Shown in pieces: positions 26,326-51,455 of a DNA stretch of 64,000 nt. The notes under the pieces are model-generated. The model was not told the DNA's origin, did not search any database, and saw nothing but the letters and a program-made list of their open reading frames with translations. Made by a program: the position numbers and the translations under genes. This stretch comes from Dictyostelium discoideum (taxonomy: Eukaryota). Location: contig CM000154.2 in the NCBI GenBank assembly GCA_000004695.1, forward strand, positions 2,912,001-2,976,000, written 5' to 3'. Each line of letters begins with the position of its first letter. Position 1 is the stretch's first letter.

Positions 26326-27459
<1,134 letters not shown>

Positions 27460-29849: not shown

Positions 29850-30531
29850 ATGTCAATAAAATTACCACTATCAAATATTAATAGTGGTGGTAATAGTAAT
29901 AATAGTAGTAGTAGTAATAGTACTAGTAATAATAATATAAATATTAATATAGGTAATGGTATACCTACAAATATTGAGAAAATGACATTTGAAGATTCAG
30001 AAACTCAAAAATTAAATATCAAGCAACAATCAAATAATAATACATCAACTTCAGTATGTGTATCATCGATTCATTCCTCGTCACCAATTTCATCACCAAC
30101 ATCACATCAAGTTAATAAATCATCAGGATCATTACCACCAGTAATAAAAAGATCACCAACAACAACTCATCATCATAATAGTAGTGGTAGTAATAGCAGT
30201 AGTAGTAGCAGTGGTAGTAATAATAATAATAATCAAATTAAAACAAGTAATGGAATGAATAAACCAAATCCAACAGGATTTTTATTTGGGAGTAAACCAA
30301 GAGAAAATTCACAAAATAAAATCGATGATAATAAAGGTGTAAATCTAGCAGTTAGTACAAGTAATTCTTCAAATAATTTTCATAAATCGCATTCTGAAAG
30401 TAATATTATAAATATAAATGCACCACCTGTAGAAACTGTAAATATGGAAGAAATTTATAATAATATACCTTCTTCAATTTCAATGGAAAATATTAGAGAG
30501 AATGAAAATAATAATAATAGTAGTAATAACA

Positions 30532-30573
<42 letters not shown>

Positions 30574-33500
30574 GTAATAATATTAATAATGTAAATGGTA
30601 ATAAAAGTAGTTTAGCATCATCCACTTCATCAATATCATCTCTATCATCAGTTTCGACATTATCAACTTCTAATGCTGCTACAAATACAAATACAAATGC
30701 AAATACAACATCAACTACTAAAACTACATCAACAGTAAGATCAACATCACCAACCCAATTTAAACCAAGAGTTGAATTTGATGAAAATAATCCAAATGCA
30801 ATTATTTTATCAAGACAAAGATGTAAATCCATTTCAAGTCCAAGTGATTTTAGGTTGAACCCACCATCAAATGTACATATGCCAACTAGTTCCTTATCGA
30901 CTTCAACTTCAACTACTAATGTTAATGGATTATTATTACCAAATGGTGTTGGTGGGGTTTCAATGTCTTTCACCCCATCAGGTTTACCAATGACTCCACC
31001 AACAAATTCTTCACAGGTTGATACATTACAAATGTCAACTGAAAGTATAACAATTCAACCTTCCTCTTTAGACTCTTCCTCTGAATCAGTTTCTGATGGT
31101 TTACAATCTGTTTCTGGTTCGCCTGTTACTGCTTCACCTTCACCAACTATTTCAAATAACACAAATGCTACTACTACTAATAATAATAATAATACTAATA
31201 CTAATAATAATAATAATAATAATAATAATCAGCATAATCATCACCATCATCAACATAGTCATAGTCAACAACATGATGTTTATCAAATTAAAAAAGAAAA
31301 TTTTCCATCGTCACCAACTTCACCAACTTTATTACCATCAGAAACTCATGATTTCTCTTCTGAATATTCTAGTAATCCAGGTGGTAAATGTGCAATTTGT
31401 AGAAAACCATTGTGGAGTTTCCCAATTAGTGATAAGAGTAGACGTTGTAGAGATTGTTCTTTAGTTGTACATAGAGCATGTGTTCCTTTAGCAACTGAAT
31501 GTCCATCGGCAAAGAAAAGTCCTTCAAAATTATCGGTACCAAATGGTAATCAATCGAATTCATCATCATCATCCTCCTCTTCATCATCATCCTCATCATC
31601 ATCAAACTCATCATCATCTAATACAAAAGGCCATTCGCGTACACCATCATCACCATCAGTTAGTAGTATACCAGGATTTCAATTAACTTCAAATGCGTCA
31701 CAAAATTTACATGTAAATTCTCATACATTATCATTATTAGTAAATGGTGCGACAATTGATTCAAATCATTATAAGAGAAATAAAAAATCATTAGAAGCTG
31801 GAGCAAGAGATTTTCATTTTATATTTCGTGGTTGTGGTATACCTTTAGATGAATTCCCATTGGATTCATATGTATGTGGTCTTTATTCATACTTTGCACA
31901 TGGTAGATTATATTTAACAGAGAGTTATGTTTGTTTTTATGATGGTTTCGTATTCGATAGAACTAAAGAACGTACAAAGATAATTAAAGTATCAAATATT
32001 GCATCCATTGAAAAACGTTCATCAGGTTTAAATCCAAGTGCAATTAAAATCAAAACATTTGATGATCAATCATTTATATTCACTCATTTTATGCATAGAG
32101 AGGTAGCATTTGATGATTTGGAAGGTTTATTAATTCATCAAGAAAGTTTACATTTTGCACATAGTATAGTTGCAAATAATTTCCCAGGTATGAATGAAGC
32201 AATTAGAGGTCAAACAAAGAGATTACTTTCAAGAGCACGTTTAGATGGTCATTATCAAATTCATAGTAAAATACGTTGTCCAATGCCAAGTAAAGAGATA
32301 CTATTAATGAGTGCAATTAAAAATAATAATTTAGATATGGTTGTAACTTTATTAAATTATTATTGTCAAGTGAATTCCGATGAAATTAATTCCGTTGATT
32401 CAAAAGGTTATACACCATTACATAATGCTGTATTCTCTGAATGTTCTGATCAAATTTTCATGCATTTATTGAATCAAAAGGAAGTACGTGTTAGAGAACG
32501 TAATATGGATGGTAATACACCACTTCATTATTTCTGTCAAAAATTCAAATCACCAGAATGTCAGAGAATAGTTCAAGCCATGATTGAAAAAGGTGCAAAT
32601 ATTAACGAACAAAATTATAATGGTGAAACTCCATTACATAAAGCAATCTTCAATCATTCAGTACGTTTATTAATGGTTTACATTTTGTTAAAGAATAATG
32701 CCAATGTAAACATTGTCAACAATGCTGGTGAATCACCACTTCATTATGCAGTACGTTTAGGTAGATTAGATGTTGCAAAAATGTTATTAGCTGCTGGTGC
32801 TGATCCAACAATCATTAGTTTAAGAGATAGAAAAACCGCTTTAGCTTTAGCAGTTGATTATGATGTTTGTCCTGAAATCTCTGATTTATTACGTCGTTTA
32901 GATACAATCACAACATCATTGGAAATGTATGAATTGGAAAAGTTTCAAGCATCATTGGTTGTTGAAGAACTTCAAAAAGAGAATGTTGTAGCACGTTTAG
33001 ATGAAAAATTATTGGATAAAATAGGTTGTACTGATAAAGAAGAACGTAGAAAATTCTTATCATTAAAGAGTAATCGTTTATTAATTCATCATCCAGCACG
33101 TACTCAAGGTGCTAAAATCATTTTAAAAGAAATGGAAACTATGGATATTAAAAATGGTAAATTAATCATTTCAGAAACTGAATTGGAGTATACAGAGAAA
33201 ATTGGTTCCGGTGCATCTGGTAAAGTTTTCAAAGGAATTTATCGTGGTAGAGTAGTTGCAATTAAAGTTTTAAAATCTGCCGATGATGAAATGACTCGTG
33301 AAGATTTCTTAAAAGAATTTGGTGTTTTGGCTTCATTGGAATCTCATACTATAGTTGGTTTATATGGTGTGGTTTTAGAACCAAAGATTTGTTTAGTAAT
33401 GGAATATTGTTCAAACGGTAGTATCTATCATTCCATTAGAAAGAATCCACCATCTTGGGAGAGATTCTTTTCTTTTGTTCAACAAATGTTGGCTGGTATT

Positions 33501-34232
33501 AATGCACTTCATCAATCAACTCCTCAAGTTTTACATAGAGATATTAAAACTCTAAATTTCTTGGTAAATCATAACAATAAGGTTAAAGTTGCCGATTTTG
33601 GTTTAAGTCGTTTCAATACAGAATCAAATCAAGAAACTTTAAATAAAACAAGAGGTACTTCAGTATATTGTGCTCCAGAAGTTTTCGAAGGTAAAGAATA
33701 TAATGAACGTTCCGATATGTATTCAATGGGTATTGTAATGTGGGAGATTGTCTATTGTGTTGTTTATGGTTGTTATATGATACCATATCAAGAGTATAAT
33801 AAAATGTTTAATGCTTTCCAAGTTGCCCTATTGGTTAATTCGTCAAAGAGAGTTTTAAGACCAACAATCCCAATTGGTGTACCACAAGTTTTAAAAGATT
33901 TAATCTATTGTCTATGGGATCATGACGTTTCTTCAAGACCAACCGCAACTGAAGCAATGACCGCATTGGCTGTATGTGAAAAAGAATATAAACAAAATAA
34001 AGCTCAATGGGAATTAGTAATTACTAAAAAAGAACCAACTCCACTTCCACGTGTTGCTCCATTACCTGCTTTCCCTGGTTATCGCCAATTCTATGAACAA
34101 AATCTTGATATTAAACCTATACCTGAGGAGGAACAAATTTATCAAGAAGCAATGGAAAAACAAAGAAGAAATCAAGAAGCAAGTGCAAATAGAAATCAAA
34201 AAAATAAAGAATTATTAAATAATAATAATTAA
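29850..34232 (+). CDS. arkA: Ankyrin-repeat, C1-like zinc finger and GRAM-like domain-containing TKL-group Ser/Thr protein kinase, 1460 aa, single exon. Possibly arkA.
   Basis: Domains in order:
- Long Ser/Asn/Thr-rich N-terminus.
- Cys-rich C1-like motif GGKCAICRKPLWSFPISDKSRRCRDCSLVVHRACVPLATECPS.
- GRAM-like segment FHFIFRGCGIPLDEFPLDSYVCGLYSYFAHGRLYLTESYVCFYD…IKVSNIASIEK.
- Ankyrin repeats (GYTPLHNAVFSEC…, GNTPLHYFCQ…, GETPLHKAIFNHS…, GESPLHYAVRLGRLDVAKMLLAAGADP).
- C-terminal kinase domain IGSGASGKVFKGIYRGRVVAIKVLK…HRDIKTLNFLV…VADFGLSR…YCAPEV.
Symbol is from memory (arkA, about 1460 aa); unverified. Confidence 0.75.
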
Positions 34233-39236: not shown

Positions 39237-42166
39237 GAATATAAAATATTTATCATTTTTATTTATATTATTCATTTTACCAATATGGTGTGAAGTTAAA
39301 GTTGAAAGTAAGTATTTTTTTTTTTTTTTTTATACAAATGATTTAAAAATATTAATTTTTTTTTTTTTTTTTTTTTATAAAAAAAATAGATTTTTATAAT
39401 AATGAAACAACTATTGTATTTGAATATAATTTAAATGATGAATATTTTACAAAATGGTTTTATTTTGATAATAATTATTTTGCCATATTCTCATGTTTTG
39501 ACAATTCAACAAATAGAATTTGTGAATTTTTACCAAGTATTTCAGATATGGATAAATTATATAGTAATAAAATTTTTTATTGTTCGATTAATCCATCATC
39601 ATCATCAGTAGAGGAATGTAATAATAGTATTTTAAAACCATCATTTTATCCAACACCAATTATATCGAAAGATTTTAAACCTCCAACAAAAGGTGGTCAA
39701 GTAGTTATTAAAGGATCATTTTTAATAAGCAGTGGTCACAAATTTCCAACACAATATGGTGATGTTAAAGTTGAAATTCCAAATTCAGGTTTAATAAATC
39801 CAACAAACATTACAATTAAATCATTTCCATTTGGATGTGGTGAACAAACAATTCGATATTATAATAATAAATTATTTAAATTTCAATATTCAAATCCAAT
39901 CCTATATTCAATATCAATTGAAAAAATAAATGAATATTCAAAAATTAAATTAATTATTAATGGTGATAATTTTTGTACAATTAGTGATAATGTTTCATTG
40001 TCAATTGGAAAATTAAATGGATTACAATTTAATTGGGAAAATAATAATAATAATAATATAATTTCAATTGAATATGATCAAATTTATTCTGGATTATATA
40101 ATGTATCATTAAATGCAAATGGATTAATTTCAAATAATTTATTATTAACGTTTAATCCAGAAATTAAAAGTGTAACATCCGTTCCAAAATCATTAGGAGG
40201 TATTATTACAATTAGAGGTAATAGATTAATATCAGAAAATGGTATGAATGATACTATTGTATCATTTGTTGGTAATCGAGAATTTGATTGTTTAATGATT
40301 TCAAATTCTGAATCCATTATTGAATGTAATCTTCTAAAAGTTGTTTTATTATTTTACGCATATTTTAATATAAATTTAATAGTTGGTGGTCAAAAACAAT
40401 TAGATGGAACAATTAAATTTGAGTTTGATAAACCATATATTAGTGGTAAATCATTAACAGGAATGAATTTAACATTATTTGGTGAAATGTTTATGAATCC
40501 CCATGTTTTTATAAATGGTATTGAATTAAATAATAATTTAACTATCTCTTTTAGTTCAACAGAATTTAAGTTCACATTACCAAATGATTTTAAAAAAGGA
40601 TCGATATTTCTTCGAAATTCTAAAAATGCTGCAGATTCAAATACAATAATATTTGAAAAATCATTTAATATTGAATCAATTGGATACTCAACAACTAGAG
40701 GTCAATTATTATCATTTCAATTTAACAATATTTTAAATGAAAATTTAAATTTAATACCAACTTTAACCTATAATTCAAGTCAATTAATTTTTAATGAACC
40801 ATTATCAACAATATTTAATAAAACAAATGGTGATTTTAAATTTGAAGTACCAATGGGTTGTGGTTCAAATAGTCCAATTCAAGGTATAATTGGTAATCAA
40901 ATTGCAAATTCAACATTTTCATATTTTGAACCAATTATTTTAAGATGTCTAACTGATGATTTTTTAATAATTTGTTATGGTTTTAATTTTGGTAGTTTAT
41001 CAATGATCAATAGTGATGATAGTGATAATAATAATAATAATAATAATAATAATATTAAAATTAATTTTTTAAATCAAATCTATACAAATAATAATATTAG
41101 TAAATTAGATCATGAAAAATTTGTTATACCATTAAAATCAAATAATCTTTATAATGGTAATATTTCAATCACTGTTTGTGGTTTAACTTCAAATTATTAT
41201 CAACTTTATTTTAAATCATCAATTAAAAATGAAGCTCGATTATTTAACCAATATTTTAAATCAAATGGTGGTGATTTAATAATTAATGGTCATAACTTCA
41301 TTTATAATAAAAGTAATTTCACATATTTACTTTGTGATGATGATGATGAATATTATAATCAAATTAAATATAATTGTAATTTTATAGATAATACATTTTA
41401 TAATTGTCCAATTAATATTATTGGGCCATTTGATAGAAAATGTATATTAAATTTCCAAAATGAAAAAATGTTTAATATAAAAATCAATTATTTATCACCA
41501 ACAGTTAATAATGTTATTTTAAATAATTTAACAATTACTGGTGGTTTAATAACTATAAATGGAAGTGATTTTTATAACCTTACAACTTTTATTGAAATTG
41601 GTAATTTAAATTGTTATAATGTTACTTTTATAAATTCAAATCAATTAAATTGCAATTTAATTACAAATAATATTTCACAACATTTAATAAGTAATAATTT
41701 ATATTATGTTAATATTTCAATTTTTAGTGGCACAAATAATAATTTAGATTTAATTAAAAATAGTAGTACTTTAATATTTAAATATGATAATTTATTAGGA
41801 AATTCAAATAGTAATAATAGTAATAATAATAATAATGGTGATGGTAGTCATGGTGATGATGGTGGTGATGGTGGGGGTGGTGATGGTGATGGTGATGGTG
41901 ATGGTGGTTCCAGTAAATTAAAATGGTTAATACCAACTATTATATGTCCAGTTATTTTTGTTGTAATGGTTATCTTTATTGGGCCTGAACTATTTAGAAG
42001 ATTCTATACCTATCCACCTCCAAAACCACCATTACCTGAACCAGGTTTTCAAAGAAGACCTTATGATCCTCCGAATTTAAATAACAGATTATATGAAAAT
42101 ACCATAACTCGATATGATAATGATCCTGATAATCTACAATTATCATTTGTTCCAATTCAACCTTAA
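39237..42166 (+). CDS. Type-I membrane glycoprotein with IPT/TIG-like repeats. It has a signal peptide, a GD-repeat stalk, a TM helix and a Pro-rich cytoplasmic tail. Tgr (tiger) family-like, about 948 aa. 2 exons: 39237..39309, 39390..42166.
   Basis: Exon 1 MNIKYLSFLFILFILPIWCEVKVE|GTAAGT is a signal peptide. The acceptor aaaaaaatag|AT at 39388-39389 (phase 1) joins to NFYNNETTIVFEY… in frame with track ORF 39548..42166. There are many NxS/T sequons. IPT/TIG-like segments (…IKSVTSVPKSLGGIITIRGNRLISENGMNDTIVSFVGNREFDCLMISNSESIIECNL…). C-terminus GDGSHGDDGGDGGGGDGDGDGDGG then TM WLIPTIICPVIFVVMVIFIG then RRFYTYPPPKPPLPEPGF. Confidence 0.7.
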
Positions 42167-46018: not shown

Positions 46019-46323
46019 AATAAACAAGATAAATAAAAAAATAATTAAGTTAAATAAAAATAAAAAATAATTAAAATAATCTTTGATCTATTTTTTTTTT
46101 TTTTTTAACCAAATTTATTTATTGGGAATTTAAAATCAGAAAATTTTTCCCCCCCTTTATTAAATTTTTTTTTTTAAAAAAAATTTCCCAAAGGTAAAAA
46201 TATTAATTTTAAAAATTTAAATAATTTTAAAACCCAAAAATTTCAAAAAAAAAAAAAAAATTTTTTTTTTAACAAAAAATTTTTAAAGGTCAATTAATTT
46301 TAATTTTTTTTATTTAATTGGTT

Positions 46324-46366
<43 letters not shown>

Positions 46367-46706
46367 CACCAACCAATTCATCATTTTTTTTATTTGAATT
46401 AATTTATAAAAAATTAAAAAATTGATTTAATTAATTTTTTTTTTTTTATTTTCATTTTTTATTTTTTTTTATTTTTTTTTATTTTTTTTTTTTTTTGTTT
46501 TTATTTTTTTTTTTATTTTTTTATTTTTTTATTTTTTTTTTATTAATTATAACCTTTCACATGATATAGTCGACAATATTTGAAGTCATTCAAATAATTT
46601 TTAATAAACAAAAATAAAATTTAATAAAATAAAATTTATAGAAAACAATATAAAATAAAAACAAAAAACAAAGTAATAAAAATATTAAAAAAAAAAAAAA
46701 AAAGAT

Positions 46707-47311
46707 ATGGGAGGGTCTCAAAGTAAAAAATTAACAAAAAAATGTAAGTTTAGTATATATATATATATATTTATTCACAGCGCAGAATAATAATAATAAC
46801 AATAGTAATATTAATGTGACATATAATAATTTAATAATCACAATTAATATAGTAGAACAAAATGAAATCGATAGAATTCAAAGTTTATTTAATGATATAT
46901 CAGTACCAATAAAATCAGTTAAATCAATTGATAGAGATGGATTTAAAAGATTTCATTTAATTCCAGAACCACTATCCGATAGAATATTCAATTTATTTGA
47001 ACAATCAACAAAAAAAGGTGGATCTATGACTTTTGATGATTTATTATCAGGTTTAGCAGTTTGTGGTAAATCAACTGAAAAAGATAAAGTTAATGGTAAT
47101 TATTATTATTATTTTATAATATCATTATAAATTTTAAAATATATTTACTTTTTTTTTTTCAATTTTTTTTTTATTTTTTTTTTTTATTTAGTTATATTTA
47201 AATTTATAGATATTGATGATGATGGTATAATAACAAAAGAAGAGATATCAGTATTATCAGTTGTTTCATTAGAGAATGCAAATTCTCCAAAAATATTCTC
47301 AAATGGTAAAT

Positions 47312-47377
<66 letters not shown>

Positions 47378-48981
47378 ATTTCGGAATGTTAATATATACA
47401 TATATAAAATAATATTATATAGATGATAATCCATTACTTTTACAAGTTGTAGGTATGGGATTCCCAAAACATAAAGTTAATACAGCATTAAAAGAGACTA
47501 GAAATGGCACAGTTGGTACACCTGGTAGTAATCCTGTTGAAAATATAGTATCTTGGTTATTAGTCAATCAAAGTTCTGTATGTAATAGTATTTTAAAGAT
47601 GATGATGATGATGAGTATATACATATAATTTATTAAAATAATTATTTATAAAATTTAGGAAAGTGATTCAGGTATTGATGAAGAATCAAAGCAACAACAA
47701 CAACCAACATCAGTTAAACCAGATCCAAAATCAATTGAAGAATTAACAATTGGATTAAATTTATCAACTATATTAACAACATTTGAAGGATTATTCGATG
47801 TTTTAGATAAAGAAGGTAGTGGTAAGATTACATTAGCTAAATTTAAGAAATGGGCATCATCAACAAAGAAACCACATGAATTAGATTCATTATTGAAACC
47901 AATAGCTGCATTATATGATAGAGCAATTAAATGGAAATCTGAATCAAATTCATCCTCATCTTCATCAGCATTAAATCAATCAAATGGTAGTGGTAATGAA
48001 CAAGTTGTTGCTGCACCTTCTGTTGAAAGATCAACTTCTCAATCAAGTTTAAATGGACAAACAACAACAACGACACCAACACAATCACCATCAATAACTT
48101 CAACTAATCCACCAAATATAATTAGTAATAGTAATAATACTTCGTCATCTGATTTAAACAATAATATTAATAATAATAATAACAATAATAATACAAATCC
48201 AAAAGAATTAAAAAGATATTCATCAGTTTCAGTTATGGAATCAACGAAAAAAGATAAAGAAAAACAAGAAAAACAAGAAAAAGAAAGAGAGAAACAAGAA
48301 AAAGAAAGAGAAAAACAAGAGAAAAAAGCAGAAAAAGAGAGGGAAAAATTAGAAAAAGAAAAAGAAAAAGATAAAGAAAAGGATACAACAAATACAACAA
48401 CAACCACTACTACTACAGCAGCAACTACAACAACACCAACACCAATTAATTCTAGTAGTAATATAGTTAAATCATCAAGTAATTCATCAATATCAAAAAA
48501 TAATAACAATAGTAATGTTAATGATGGTGATTCATCATTTGATTCAGATAGTGATGATGAAGTTATTAAACCAGCTATTCAAGTGGTTATTAGAGATAAA
48601 CCAATTGAAAGTCAAAAGAGTGAAAATTCATTATTTAATATTGAACCTTCAATTGGTATTGTTAAACCAATGCTTAGTAAAGCTGCTACCTTAAGAACTA
48701 GAGGCAGTAGATCAAATAGAAATACAATGGATCCTGAATTATTCTCTTCACTTCAACCATTAACTCCAACTTCAAAACATACTACTACCACTGCAACTAA
48801 TACAAATACAAATACAAACACATCAACAACTTCACCAAATTTATCATCACCATTATCACCAACACCATCATCACCATTATCACCAACACCCTCAAATAGA
48901 AACCCATTAGGTCACAGTAATACTATTGTATCATCACCACCACCATATGTAACATCACAATCTAATGCAAGTTTCTTTTCA

Positions 48982-49018
<37 letters not shown>

Positions 49019-49625
49019 GTAGTAATAATATCAATAATAATAATAATAGTAATAATAATAATAATATAATCAATAATCAAAATAAAGATAATTTCACAGA
49101 TACAGCATCATCTAATAGTAATCCAACAAGTCCGATTTCACAAAAATTAAATTCTGAAAGTATCGAATATATGAAGAAATGTATAAATCAAATGGAAAAT
49201 GGTAACTTTAAAGAAGCAATTTTAGATTTGGATCAATGTATTAAAATATTATGTGTGTATAAAATTTTATTTAAAAAATAATATTAATAATTTTATTTTA
49301 TATTAATTTTTTTTTTTATTTTTTTTATTTTAAATAGTACAAGTTCATTCAAATAATTTATCAATTATTCAAAATGAAATTAATTTTTGTGTTGGATATA
49401 AAGTTACATTAAATTTATTAATAGAAATTAAAGAAATTGAAAAGAAGATTGAACAAGAATCAAATAAGGATGAAGTATCATCATATTATGAAACCATTGC
49501 TTTATTATCTAAATTTTTAGTCGACATTCCACTTCAAACTAATCATAGATTAGTTTGTGCAAAAATGGCTGTAAAATATAATTTAATTTCAAATAATTTT
49601 GGTATAGCTGGTAAATTAATAGAGG

Positions 49626-49663
<38 letters not shown>

Positions 49664-50052
49664 TTATAAAATAATACATTTATTAATTATTTATTAATTA
49701 TTTATTTAATTATTTTTGAAAGATTATTTTACAAAAAGGTATAAATTTAGGTGATAAAGAAAAAGAACAATATGAAATTCAATTACAACAATGTAGAGAT
49801 AATCAATTTAATAATTCAAGTTTACCAATGTATATTTGTCCAAGTTGTAAATCATCAACATCTTGTAGTTCAATTAGATGTTCTTGTTTGAGACCTGTAA
49901 GATGGTGTTTTCAAACTTTTCAACTTATTAAAGATTTAACCTTTTTACAATGTAATTATTGTTATTCAACTTTTTCAATTAATCAATCTGAAGTTGTTTC
50001 AAAATCAATTTGTCCATCTTGTAATCATGGTATAATTAATACTAAAAATTAA
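46707..50052 (+). CDS. Novel multi-domain protein. Domains in order: N-myristoylation motif (MGGSQSK), EF-hand(s), UBA-like domain, long S/T/N-rich and E/K-repeat low-complexity region, C-terminal helical + Cys-rich domain. 7 exons: join(46707..46743, 46781..47095, 47192..47305, 47423..47577, 47659..49252, 49338..49624, 49723..50052).
   Basis: Exon 1 MGGSQSKKLTKK|GTAAGT. Exon 2 reads …DRIFNLFEQSTKKGGSMTFDDLLSGLAVCGKSTEKDKVN (CHP/calcineurin-B-like). Exon 3 VIFKFIDIDDDGIITKEEISVL is a canonical EF loop DxDxDG…E. Exon 4 …QVVGMGFPKHKVNTALKETRNGTVGTPGSNPVENIVSWLLVNQSS|GTATGT is a UBA-like MGF…WLL pattern. Exon 5 contains DVLDKEGSGKITLAKF, the track ORF 47893..49281 and a KEKQEKQEKEREKQEKEREKQEKKAEKEREK repeat. 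Exons 6-7 give …YYETIALLSKFLVDIPLQTNHRLVCAKMAVKYNLISNNFGIAGKLIE|…MYICPSCKSSTSCSSIRCSCLRPVRWCF…CPSCNHGIINTKN*. All junctions keep frame. Donors are GTAAGT, GTAATT, GTAAAT, GTATGT, GTATTT and one weak GTGTGT at 49253 (so the exon 5/6 boundary is low confidence). The C-terminal region loosely resembles the alpha-COP C-terminal domain. Confidence 0.6.
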
Positions 50053-50176: not shown

Positions 50177-50276
50177 NNNNNNNNNNNNNNNNNNNNNNNN
50201 NNNNNNNNNNNNNNNNNNNNNNNNNNNNNNNNNNNNNNNNNNNNNNNNNNNNNNNNNNNNNNNNNNNNNNNNNNNN
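50177..50276. other. Assembly gap (100 N)
   Basis: Run of n. Confidence 1.
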
Positions 50277-51455
50277 AAAAAAAAGGTTATTAAAAAAAAA
50301 ATAATAATATTAATTTTTAAAGAAAATAAAAGATTATGTGGAAATTATTTTAAAAGAAAATTTTTGATGATCCCATCCTGATTTACTATTATTGGTTTTA
50401 AAAAAAAAAAAAAAAAAAAAAAGTTTTTCAACTGATAAGGGTTAATTTGGTTGAATGAATTGGTTGTGGTGATGTGTGGTGTGTTATTATTTTAAAAGAA
50501 TAATGGTAATATTTTGTATCTTTTTTTAATTTCTAAAAATAAAAAGTTTATAAAGGTATTATTTTTTTTTTTTTTTTTTTTTTTTTTATTTTTTTTTTAT
50601 TTTTTTTTTTACAACCCAAATTCATTCACATCATAAATCTCAATAAATAATAAAATAATTAAAACATATCCACTTTACAACTTTATTTTTAGATTTATTG
50701 AATTGTGTAACCTAAACACTTTTCAACTTAATTTTTTTTTTTTTTTTTTTTAAATTAAAAAAAGATATTTTAAAAAATGTAATTTCAAAAAAAGATATTT
50801 TTTTTTATTTTTTTAAATTTTATTTTGTTTTTTTTTTTTTTTTTTTGATAATTAATTTTTTATAATTTCAGCCTTTTTTATATATCTTTGAATTAAGATT
50901 TAGAAATCCCATTCACCATATATATAACACTTTTTTTTTTTTTTGCAATTGGGGGTATTTTTTAAACTATTTTTAACTTTAATAAAATTAAAAAATGGGC
51001 TCCAATTAAAGTGTTTGAATGAAAATGGGAAATAATTTGGTAAAAAAAAAATAAAAATAAAAAAACATAAAATTGATGTTCTAAAAATCTCTCAATGATC
51101 ATTCAATCTTTAAAAAAATAATTCAAACCATATGTATATATTTTATGTGGCTCAATATATGGTGCTATTGAAGAGATTATTTGAACATCAAGTTTATGGT
51201 TTTTAAGTTAATAAAAAAAAAAAAAATTATAGGGCTTTTAAAGGAATGAGCTATTTTTAATTATTTTTTTTTTTTCTCACCCCGCCACACAAGGAAAAAA
51301 ACCACCCAAAATTTTTTTTTTTTTTATTTTTGGAATTTTTAAATCTAAAAGTTAAGATTTGTGTTAATTTTTTTTATCATTTTTTTTTTTTATTATTTTT
51401 TTTTTTTTAATAATTTTTTTTATTATTTTTTTTTATTTACCTTTTTTGTGTTTCA

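Follow-up and report, generated by a model that had tools for sequence, protein, structure and literature searches.

Within a 64,000-nucleotide (nt) stretch of the Dictyostelium discoideum genome (assembly GCA_000004695.1, contig CM000154.2, positions 2,912,001 to 2,976,000; hereafter the window, whose positions serve as coordinates throughout) lies a gene that, judged by sequence comparison, is a member of a previously undescribed, conserved protist family. Its predicted product combines an N-terminal myristoylation motif, EF-hands, a UBA domain and a long disordered linker with a Cys-rich C-terminal domain related to those of alpha-COP and of the IFT-A subunits (Table 1). The initial annotation of this DNA had been unable to place the combination in any known family, and this view has stood: we found no paper on the EF-hand/UBA/tail architecture or on COPI_C proteins other than alpha-COP, the supplements to Kaur & Subramanian contain no mention of an EF-hand/UBA/tail family. 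The architecture is conserved in related amoebae.

Gene structure

The window is AT-rich, with about 20% GC, as is typical of dictyostelids. The seven exons join in frame over 2760 nt to give 919 amino acids (aa), and each of the six introns, which are 81-117 nt long, runs from GT to AG; the gene starts and ends exactly where the initial annotation had placed it. The exon joins are supported by orthologue DNA from two other dictyostelids, which was used in place of RNA sequencing (RNA-seq). At the first of these loci (L001, in assembly GCA_000190715.1, which we take to be that of D. purpureum) the coding sequence is colinear with the window protein, with breaks at the positions of window introns 1, 3, 4 and 6 and no break at those of intron 2 (47096-47191) and intron 5 (49253-49337). 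At these two positions the comparison indicates intron gain or loss between close species. The first intron is also present at the second dictyostelid locus (L002), and in the D. purpureum DNA the structure of exons 1 and 2 matches that of the window, with MGGVQSKKLNKK followed by the donor T/GTAATG and the acceptor reading ...AATAG/TG GAA CAA (a stroke marks each splice site).

The alternative that two adjacent genes, one for the EF-hand/UBA part and the other for the alpha-COP-like tail, have been merged into one mis-joined model seems to us barely credible. It is true that some of the homologues recovered are themselves fused models (P0012, which has FNIP repeats, and P0002, of 3598 aa). 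However, a Pfam-recognised EF-hand precedes the first ATG in the frame of exon 5, and since no ATG lies upstream of its EF-hand coding in frame, exon 5 cannot be a stand-alone gene. Moreover, the complete head-to-tail architecture recurs in independent single gene models from three other organisms: P0001 is from D. purpureum, P0006 from the assembly of a further dictyostelid and P0013 from a distantly related, GC-rich organism. The D. purpureum DNA is colinear, with four intron positions in common and two junctions unbroken. On these three grounds we rejected the two-gene model.

Three further observations concern the DNA at this locus. The deposited D. purpureum model P0001 (MGGVQ/MEQNE..., L001 2001-2180 of GL871302.1) uses a different first splice, although the DNA has MGGVQSKKLNKK and a GT donor in the same phase; the annotation probably cuts off the basic patch behind the myristoylation motif. 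Intron 3 (47306-47422) holds an unbroken run of about 55 A, and the region upstream of the gene at 46300-46540 is filled with very long homopolymer tracts. Finally, an assembly gap of 100 N at 50178-50277 starts 125 nt past the stop codon, so that the 3' untranslated region and the downstream intergenic region are incomplete.

The C-terminal domain and its relatives

The C-terminal domain is about 235 aa long, and the helical region and Cys-rich end that had been proposed for it are both present. When exon 7 was used in an exhaustive phmmer search over 1.84 billion representatives, 25 proteins were recovered, 24 of which are true homologues; the other, P0015, is a bacterial repeat protein and was discarded as a false positive. 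Scored with a local profile, the homologues share the whole unit of approximately 225 aa at 88-293 bits. Neither the C-terminal 247 aa, as spliced, nor the N-terminal 279 aa gave a match in word-indexed protein searches, a profile search gave P0003 as its sole match, the exact window protein was absent from the collection searched, and a model of exon 7 alone made with AF2 was uninformative (predicted local distance difference test, pLDDT, 34).

In an alignment of the C-terminal domain from 19 family sequences (A1), eight cysteine positions never vary and a ninth holds Cys in at least 90% of the sequences, giving the pattern CxxC-x10-Cx(1-2)C-x6-C-x14-CxxC-x16-CxxC. From this pattern the tail is predicted to keep two full Cys4 zinc sites together with one orphan Cys, and to form an NZF-like zinc ribbon followed by a half-degenerate RING-like site, arranged as in the IFT-A subunits. 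A Cys-rich module next to a UBA could be read in another way, as a RING-type E3 ubiquitin ligase in which the tail recruits an E2 and the UBA binds substrate or product chains, making the protein a writer of ubiquitin and not a reader. We consider this distinctly unlikely, because the Cys spacing is not that of C3HC4 or C3H2C3, the first knuckle pair matches an NZF-type ribbon, and one RING-type site is complete while the other is a single Cys, just as in alpha-COP and IFT-A. Neither the alpha-COP tail nor the IFT-A tails are known to act as ligases, and the mono-ubiquitination seen with IFT172 was ascribed by its authors to E3-independent UbcH5a activity (PMC13290226). A canonical RING E3 was rejected on Cys spacing, as cross-braced C3HC4/C3H2C3 spacing with two complete zinc sites is not found in the window protein.

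That the C-terminus resembles that of alpha-COP, as the initial annotation had loosely suggested, was borne out by profile methods. The Pfam family COPI_C (PF06957) matches the full protein at 27.3 bits, above its gathering cut-off of 25, but the isolated 247-aa tail at 23.8 bits, below it; the match is partial, covering profile positions 156-335 of 405. Scores above the cut-off were also obtained for P0013 and P0014, and none of ten control tails (one reversed and nine shuffled) was hit. With the A1 profile, the alpha-COP C-terminal domain (CTD; 6U3V_B and 3MKR_B) was matched in the PDB at 3.4e-8 over the helices, and the positions of the lone Cys and of the last CxxC align with the degenerate alpha-COP beta-domain. 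The same profile matched the IFT-A subunits 8F5O_F (5e-8) and 8HME_E (7e-8) over the helices and the complete Cys pattern, with the zinc module in register with that of 8f5o_F, as well as IFT122B (7e-4), WDR19 (0.011) and, weakly, the NZF of TAB2 at the first CxxC...CxxC. When the model of a homologue was compared with known folds, crystal structures of the alpha-COP CTD came out best, with 192/228 residues aligned at 3.0 A.

These comparisons identify the tail, by profile and fold, as a distinct paralogue in the alpha-COP/IFT-A C-terminal superfamily that matches the last two-thirds of the alpha-COP CTD. It is taken to be a separate paralogue, and not a copy of alpha-COP, because the IFT-A tails fare no worse than alpha-COP in the sequence-profile scores. 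The protein itself is neither: alpha-COP was rejected since a Pfam scan of the 919 aa gave no WD40 or Coatomer_WDAD and the N-terminus consists of EF-hand and UBA, and an IFT-A WD40/TPR subunit was rejected since no propellers or TPR arm appeared in that scan, the terminal helices and zinc module alone being common to both.

Kaur & Subramanian (PMC4678705) showed that the beta-domain of alpha-COP has the form of a binuclear treble clef, RING-like but degenerate, in which the first Cys and the second site are conserved, and they tied the alpha-COP CTD to epsilon-COP binding, Dsl1 and oligomerisation; the CTD also binds tryptophan motifs at a site on the helices that carry residues 1013 and 1058 (PMC10866661). 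Both IFT122 and IFT144 have two zinc sites, site 1 NZF-like and site 2 RNF146-like, beside a degenerate site. The IFT-A zinc-binding domains are located where subunits meet, and the complex depends on them for its stability, such that zinc chelation destabilises it (Jiang et al., PMC10066299). The degenerate RING of IFT121 binds IFT43 (Hesketh et al., bioRxiv 10.1101/2022.08.09.503213).

In the A1 profile alignment, homology to alpha-COP begins at approximately residue 1013 and thus exactly at the tryptophan-motif helices. Taken with the structural match of the homologue model, this is what could be said for a COPI accessory factor, whose tail would take over from the alpha-COP CTD in binding epsilon-COP, or the tryptophan motifs found in delta-COP or Dsl1. 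In this way the protein would bring coatomer to membranes marked by Ca2+ or ubiquitin, or control it there. Yet identity to alpha-COP is just 12-18%, the first third of its CTD has no equivalent in the window tail, which has a further NZF-like ribbon, and the equally good scores of the IFT-A tails point to a separate paralogue; we therefore hold a role in COPI to be rather unlikely.

The same tail is found on other heads: P0005 combines leucine-rich repeats (LRR) with three tandem tails, P0008 and P0025 carry beta-propellers, and in P0017 (L005) the tail is located upstream of an EH domain. Its occurrence on varied interaction heads fits a common docking module, and a part in docking or assembly that all of them share is the simplest explanation. 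P0008 and P0025 (the latter at L003) are large WD40 proteins, and the first propeller of P0025 is of the IFT122 type. A few of the retrieved homologues, P0002 (3598 aa), P0012 (1122 aa) and P0004 (553 aa), look like fused or truncated gene models in which EF/UBA/tail is fused with LRR, papain-like protease and transmembrane segments or else with FNIP repeats, or is without the helical part.

The head, the linker and the neighbouring genes

The protein begins with MGGSQSKK, of which MGGSQSK fits the PROSITE-type pattern G-{EDRKHPFYW}-x2-[STAGCN]-{P}. The motif noticed in the initial annotation is kept as MGGVQSKKLSKK in P0006, as MGGKQSKKMVKK in P0013 and as MGGVQSKKLNKK in the D. purpureum genomic DNA, all with the shared start MGG-x-QSKK, and the product is predicted to be N-myristoylated. 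Pfam recognises EF-hand_8 at residues 68-116 (E 8e-12) and EF-hand_6/EF-hand_1 at residues 226-249. When six orthologous N-termini were aligned and the resulting profile (A3) was searched against PDB sequences, EF1-EF3 matched CBL4/SOS3 (6.9e-15) along with CBL2, NCS-1, KChIP and calcineurin B, in keeping with the calcineurin-B-like region first suggested; for CBL4, CBL2, NCS-1 and calcineurin B the values range from 7e-15 to 1e-6. Residues ~128-190 matched the UBA domains of USP5 (5.2e-6), Arabidopsis USP14 (1.8e-5) and USP13 (2.6e-5), and the second EF-hand segment matched EF4 of CBL4 weakly. Among the orthologues, Pfam finds a UBA in P0013 at 1.3e-10 (41.3 bits) and UBA_7 in P0012 at 27.0 bits, which is at the cut-off.

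Read together, these matches identify the N-terminal module as a CBL/calcineurin-B-type four-EF-hand domain with a conserved myristoylation signal. The UBA appears to be inserted inside this domain, in the order EF1-EF2-EF3-[UBA]-EF4, where the placement of EF4 rests on Pfam and the weak CBL4 alignment. EF4 itself probably does not bind Ca2+, because there is a Lys at position 12 of its loop.

Table 1. Positions in the window of the gene, its exons and encoded features, and of neighbouring genes.
Feature	Position	Strand	Remarks
Whole gene	46707..50052	+	seven exons, 919-aa product, TAA stop 50050-50052
Exons	46707-46743, 46853-47095, 47192-47305, 47423-47577, 47659-49252, 49338-49624, 49723-50052	+	last exon includes stop
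Exon 1	46707..46742	+	encodes MGGSQSKKLTKK; N-myristoylation consensus (Gly2, Ser6), then basic patch
EF-hands 1-3	46743..47277	+	calcineurin-B-like/CBL/NCS-type; residues 13-122, exons 2-3
Canonical Ca2+ loop of EF3	47209-47244	+	DIDDDGIITKEE; residues 100-111
UBA-like domain	47428..47571	+	residues 134-181, exon 4; MGF loop, short insertion ahead of helix 3
Fourth EF-hand	47761..47856	+	residues 218-249; loop DKEGSGKITLAK with Lys at position 12
Disordered linker	47857..49152	+	residues ~250-681
Linker element	48196-48243	+	NPKELKRYSSVSVMES; conserved block
E/K-rich run	48247-48384	+	KKDKEKQEKQEKEREKQEK...; residues 380-425; not conserved
Acidic-Phe and beta-strand motif	48532-48609	+	SSFDSDSDDEVIKPAIQVVIRDKPIE; conserved block
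Clathrin-box-like LFNIE	48631-48645	+	residues 508-512; conserved block
Basic motif	48688-48723	+	TLRTRGSRSNRN; conserved block
Poly-N tract	48982-49083	+	not conserved
Helical part of C-terminal domain	49153..49809	+	residues 682-839; spans the last part of exon 5, all of exon 6 and the first part of exon 7
Zinc module (putative)	49822..50049	+	residues 844-919
Site 1, CPSC-x10-CSC	49837-49887	+	NZF-like ribbon
Lone conserved Cys in RWCF	49900-49911	+	
Site 2, CNYC-x16-CPSC	49951-50022	+	RING-like half-site
Protein kinase, 2120 aa	8446-14805	+	
Intronless actin	26329-27456	-	Pfam Actin, 7e-152
C1 + GRAM + ankyrin + kinase protein	29850-34229	+	
TgrO1-like Ig/TIG protein	39548-42163	+	

Between the head and the tail, residues ~280-680 are of low complexity, with N+S+T making up 49%; the E/K-rich run of the initial annotation is there, but the stretch is about 400 aa long and not the 450 proposed. 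Four conserved blocks stand amid the divergent linker (NPKELKRYSSVSVME, SSFDSDSDDEVIKPAIQVVIRDKPIE, SLFNIEP and TLRTRGSR), and the acidic-Phe and RxRG blocks reach as far as P0013, with a looser, partial form in P0022. On the opposite strand, an antisense open reading frame of 156 aa (48039-48509, -) mirrors the E/K-rich and Thr-rich coding and is a low-complexity artefact, not a gene.

One of the conserved blocks resembles a clathrin box, L-phi-x-phi-[DE], which reads LFNIE in the window protein, LFNID in D. purpureum and P0003 and LLNFD in P0006, with LLDMD in P0013 at a different position. Along with acidic-Phe motifs nearby and the EH domain in one family member, this would suit a clathrin-associated sorting protein in the manner of epsin, Eps15 or Ede1, whose linker binds the clathrin terminal domain and adaptor appendages and whose UBA picks ubiquitinated cargo, leaving the tail for oligomerisation only. 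Such a protein is nevertheless unlikely in our view: we estimate that about 0.17 chance matches to the motif are expected per protein of this size, the consensus is broken in two dictyostelid sequences (LFSIY and LVDFT), and DPF, NPF and FxDxF motifs are absent from the window protein.

The neighbours of the gene (Table 1) are unrelated Dictyostelium-type genes for actin, a Tgr-like Ig protein and kinases. A zeta-COP gene of at least two exons lies on the minus strand at ~1469-2114, as found by tblastn with a human COPZ1 sequence (E 1e-20 and 7e-10). As it is 45 kb away in a eukaryotic genome, we rejected a functional link and give its proximity no functional implication; the initial annotation had already allowed that it might be coincidental.

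Proposed function and comparison with known systems

We tentatively propose, at slightly less than an even chance, that the protein is a modular peripheral-membrane, ubiquitin-dependent sorting adaptor that docks via its tail to a coat-like or TPR partner. The myristate and the adjacent Lys patch would hold the protein on a membrane, where the UBA would read ubiquitin on cargo or partners, and this reading may be modulated by EF3, which has the only canonical Ca2+ loop and lies beside the inserted UBA. The protocoatomer-type tail would serve as a docking or oligomerisation module, because its alpha-COP equivalent binds epsilon-COP and acidic tryptophan motifs and its IFT-A equivalents lock onto TPR partners. 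It might thus link the head that reads ubiquitin with a scaffold of coat-like or TPR type, or with the protein's own acidic-Phe linker motif, with the lipid anchor and UBA standing in for the beta-propellers of classical coat subunits.

A number of observations weigh against such an adaptor. Membrane, ubiquitin, Ca2+ and zinc binding are each something that we infer from sequence. The window UBA on its own falls below the Pfam cut-off (UBA_7 at residues 136-181, E 6e-4, 17-20 bits against 27; UBA 0.04), so that the UBA domain first annotated here holds at the level of the family and not for the window sequence by itself. Only EF3 has a canonical EF loop, with Asp at position 1 and Glu/Asp at position 12, while EF1 and EF2 are irregular when read by eye; and in P0013 the EF3 loop is degenerate although the UBA is textbook. 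With a single canonical loop in one protein and a degenerate one in the other, Ca2+ regulation may be lineage-specific or absent. The clathrin-box-like consensus is present in four of the six dictyostelid sequences. As to the tail, a phmmer search against the PDB did not find alpha-COP, and the similarity to the end of human alpha-COP was not significant by BLASTP and Smith-Waterman, 392 of 1000 shuffles scoring as high. Since pairwise similarity is not significant, the homology to alpha-COP rests on profiles and fold, and the structure model was made for a homologue and not for the window protein.

A broader interpretation, which we judge unlikely, is that the tail, with the linker motifs in some members, marks an unrecognised protocoatomer-derived protist system in which the Dictyostelium protein is a ubiquitin-selective, possibly Ca2+-gated coat adaptor. 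Within such a system one alpha-COP/IFT-A-like docking domain may have been given exchangeable heads, namely beta-propellers in P0008 and P0025, LRR in P0005, EH in P0017 and EF-hand/UBA in amoebae, and a lipid anchor together with a ubiquitin reader may have taken the place of the cargo-binding propellers in a coat-type subunit.

The literature that we found does not treat the alpha-COP/IFT-A C-terminal domains as a mobile module outside coatomer and IFT. A domain with intact zinc ligands on unrelated heads in several protist lineages would offer a new handle on the reuse of protocoatomer parts, and Dictyostelium is a tractable model for identifying the docking partner of such a tail. To have a UBA apparently inserted in a calcineurin-B-like EF-hand domain is unusual, and could couple Ca2+ to the reading of ubiquitin.

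Comparison with known systems sets the protein apart from each of those to which it is related. The alpha-COP CTD (PDB 3MKR_B, 3MV2_A and 6TZT_B) belongs to a protein with WD40 propellers and a WDAD solenoid, whereas the window protein has neither; besides the missing first third and the inserted ribbon, the two differ in that the zinc ligands are complete in the window tail and lost in yeast and bovine alpha-COP. The likeness to the TPR and zinc-binding C-termini of the IFT-A subunits (IFT122, IFT144/WDR19 and IFT121; PDB 8F5O, 8HME and 8FGW) extends over the helices and the full Cys pattern, with the cysteines in the same order, CxxC-x10-CxxC, lone Cys, CxxC...CxxC, and an NZF-like site 1 before a RING-like site 2 beside a degenerate partner site (PMC10066299). 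In contrast to the window protein, IFT-A proteins are 1200-1400-aa WD40/TPR subunits of ciliary trains. Dictyostelids are not known to have cilia. The C-terminal U-box-like domain of IFT172 (PDB 9H2D) bears a much weaker resemblance; a U-box has no zinc, and the domain belongs to IFT-B.

Eps15/Ede1 and epsin, the ubiquitin-binding endocytic adaptors, offer a functional analogy only. Like the window protein they combine domains of the EF-hand type and a module for binding ubiquitin with a long, disordered linker that bears short motifs, but their EH, ENTH and UIM domains are absent from it in the Pfam scan, its membrane attachment is by a predicted lipid anchor, and its protocoatomer C-terminal domain is without counterpart in these adaptors. 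The head is closest to the N-myristoylated EF-hand sensors (CBL4/SOS3, CBL2, NCS-1, KChIP, calcineurin B and CHP), which it resembles over EF1-EF3 at profile E values of 7e-15 to 1e-5, and with CBLs it shares the Gly2 myristoylation motif and degenerate EF1 and EF2 loops. It differs from these sensors in having a UBA and about 45 aa of linker that break the domain between EF3 and EF4, and in that only EF3 is canonical. Whereas the sensors are stand-alone subunits of approximately 200 aa, the window protein carries its EF-hand domain as the head of a chain of 919 aa.

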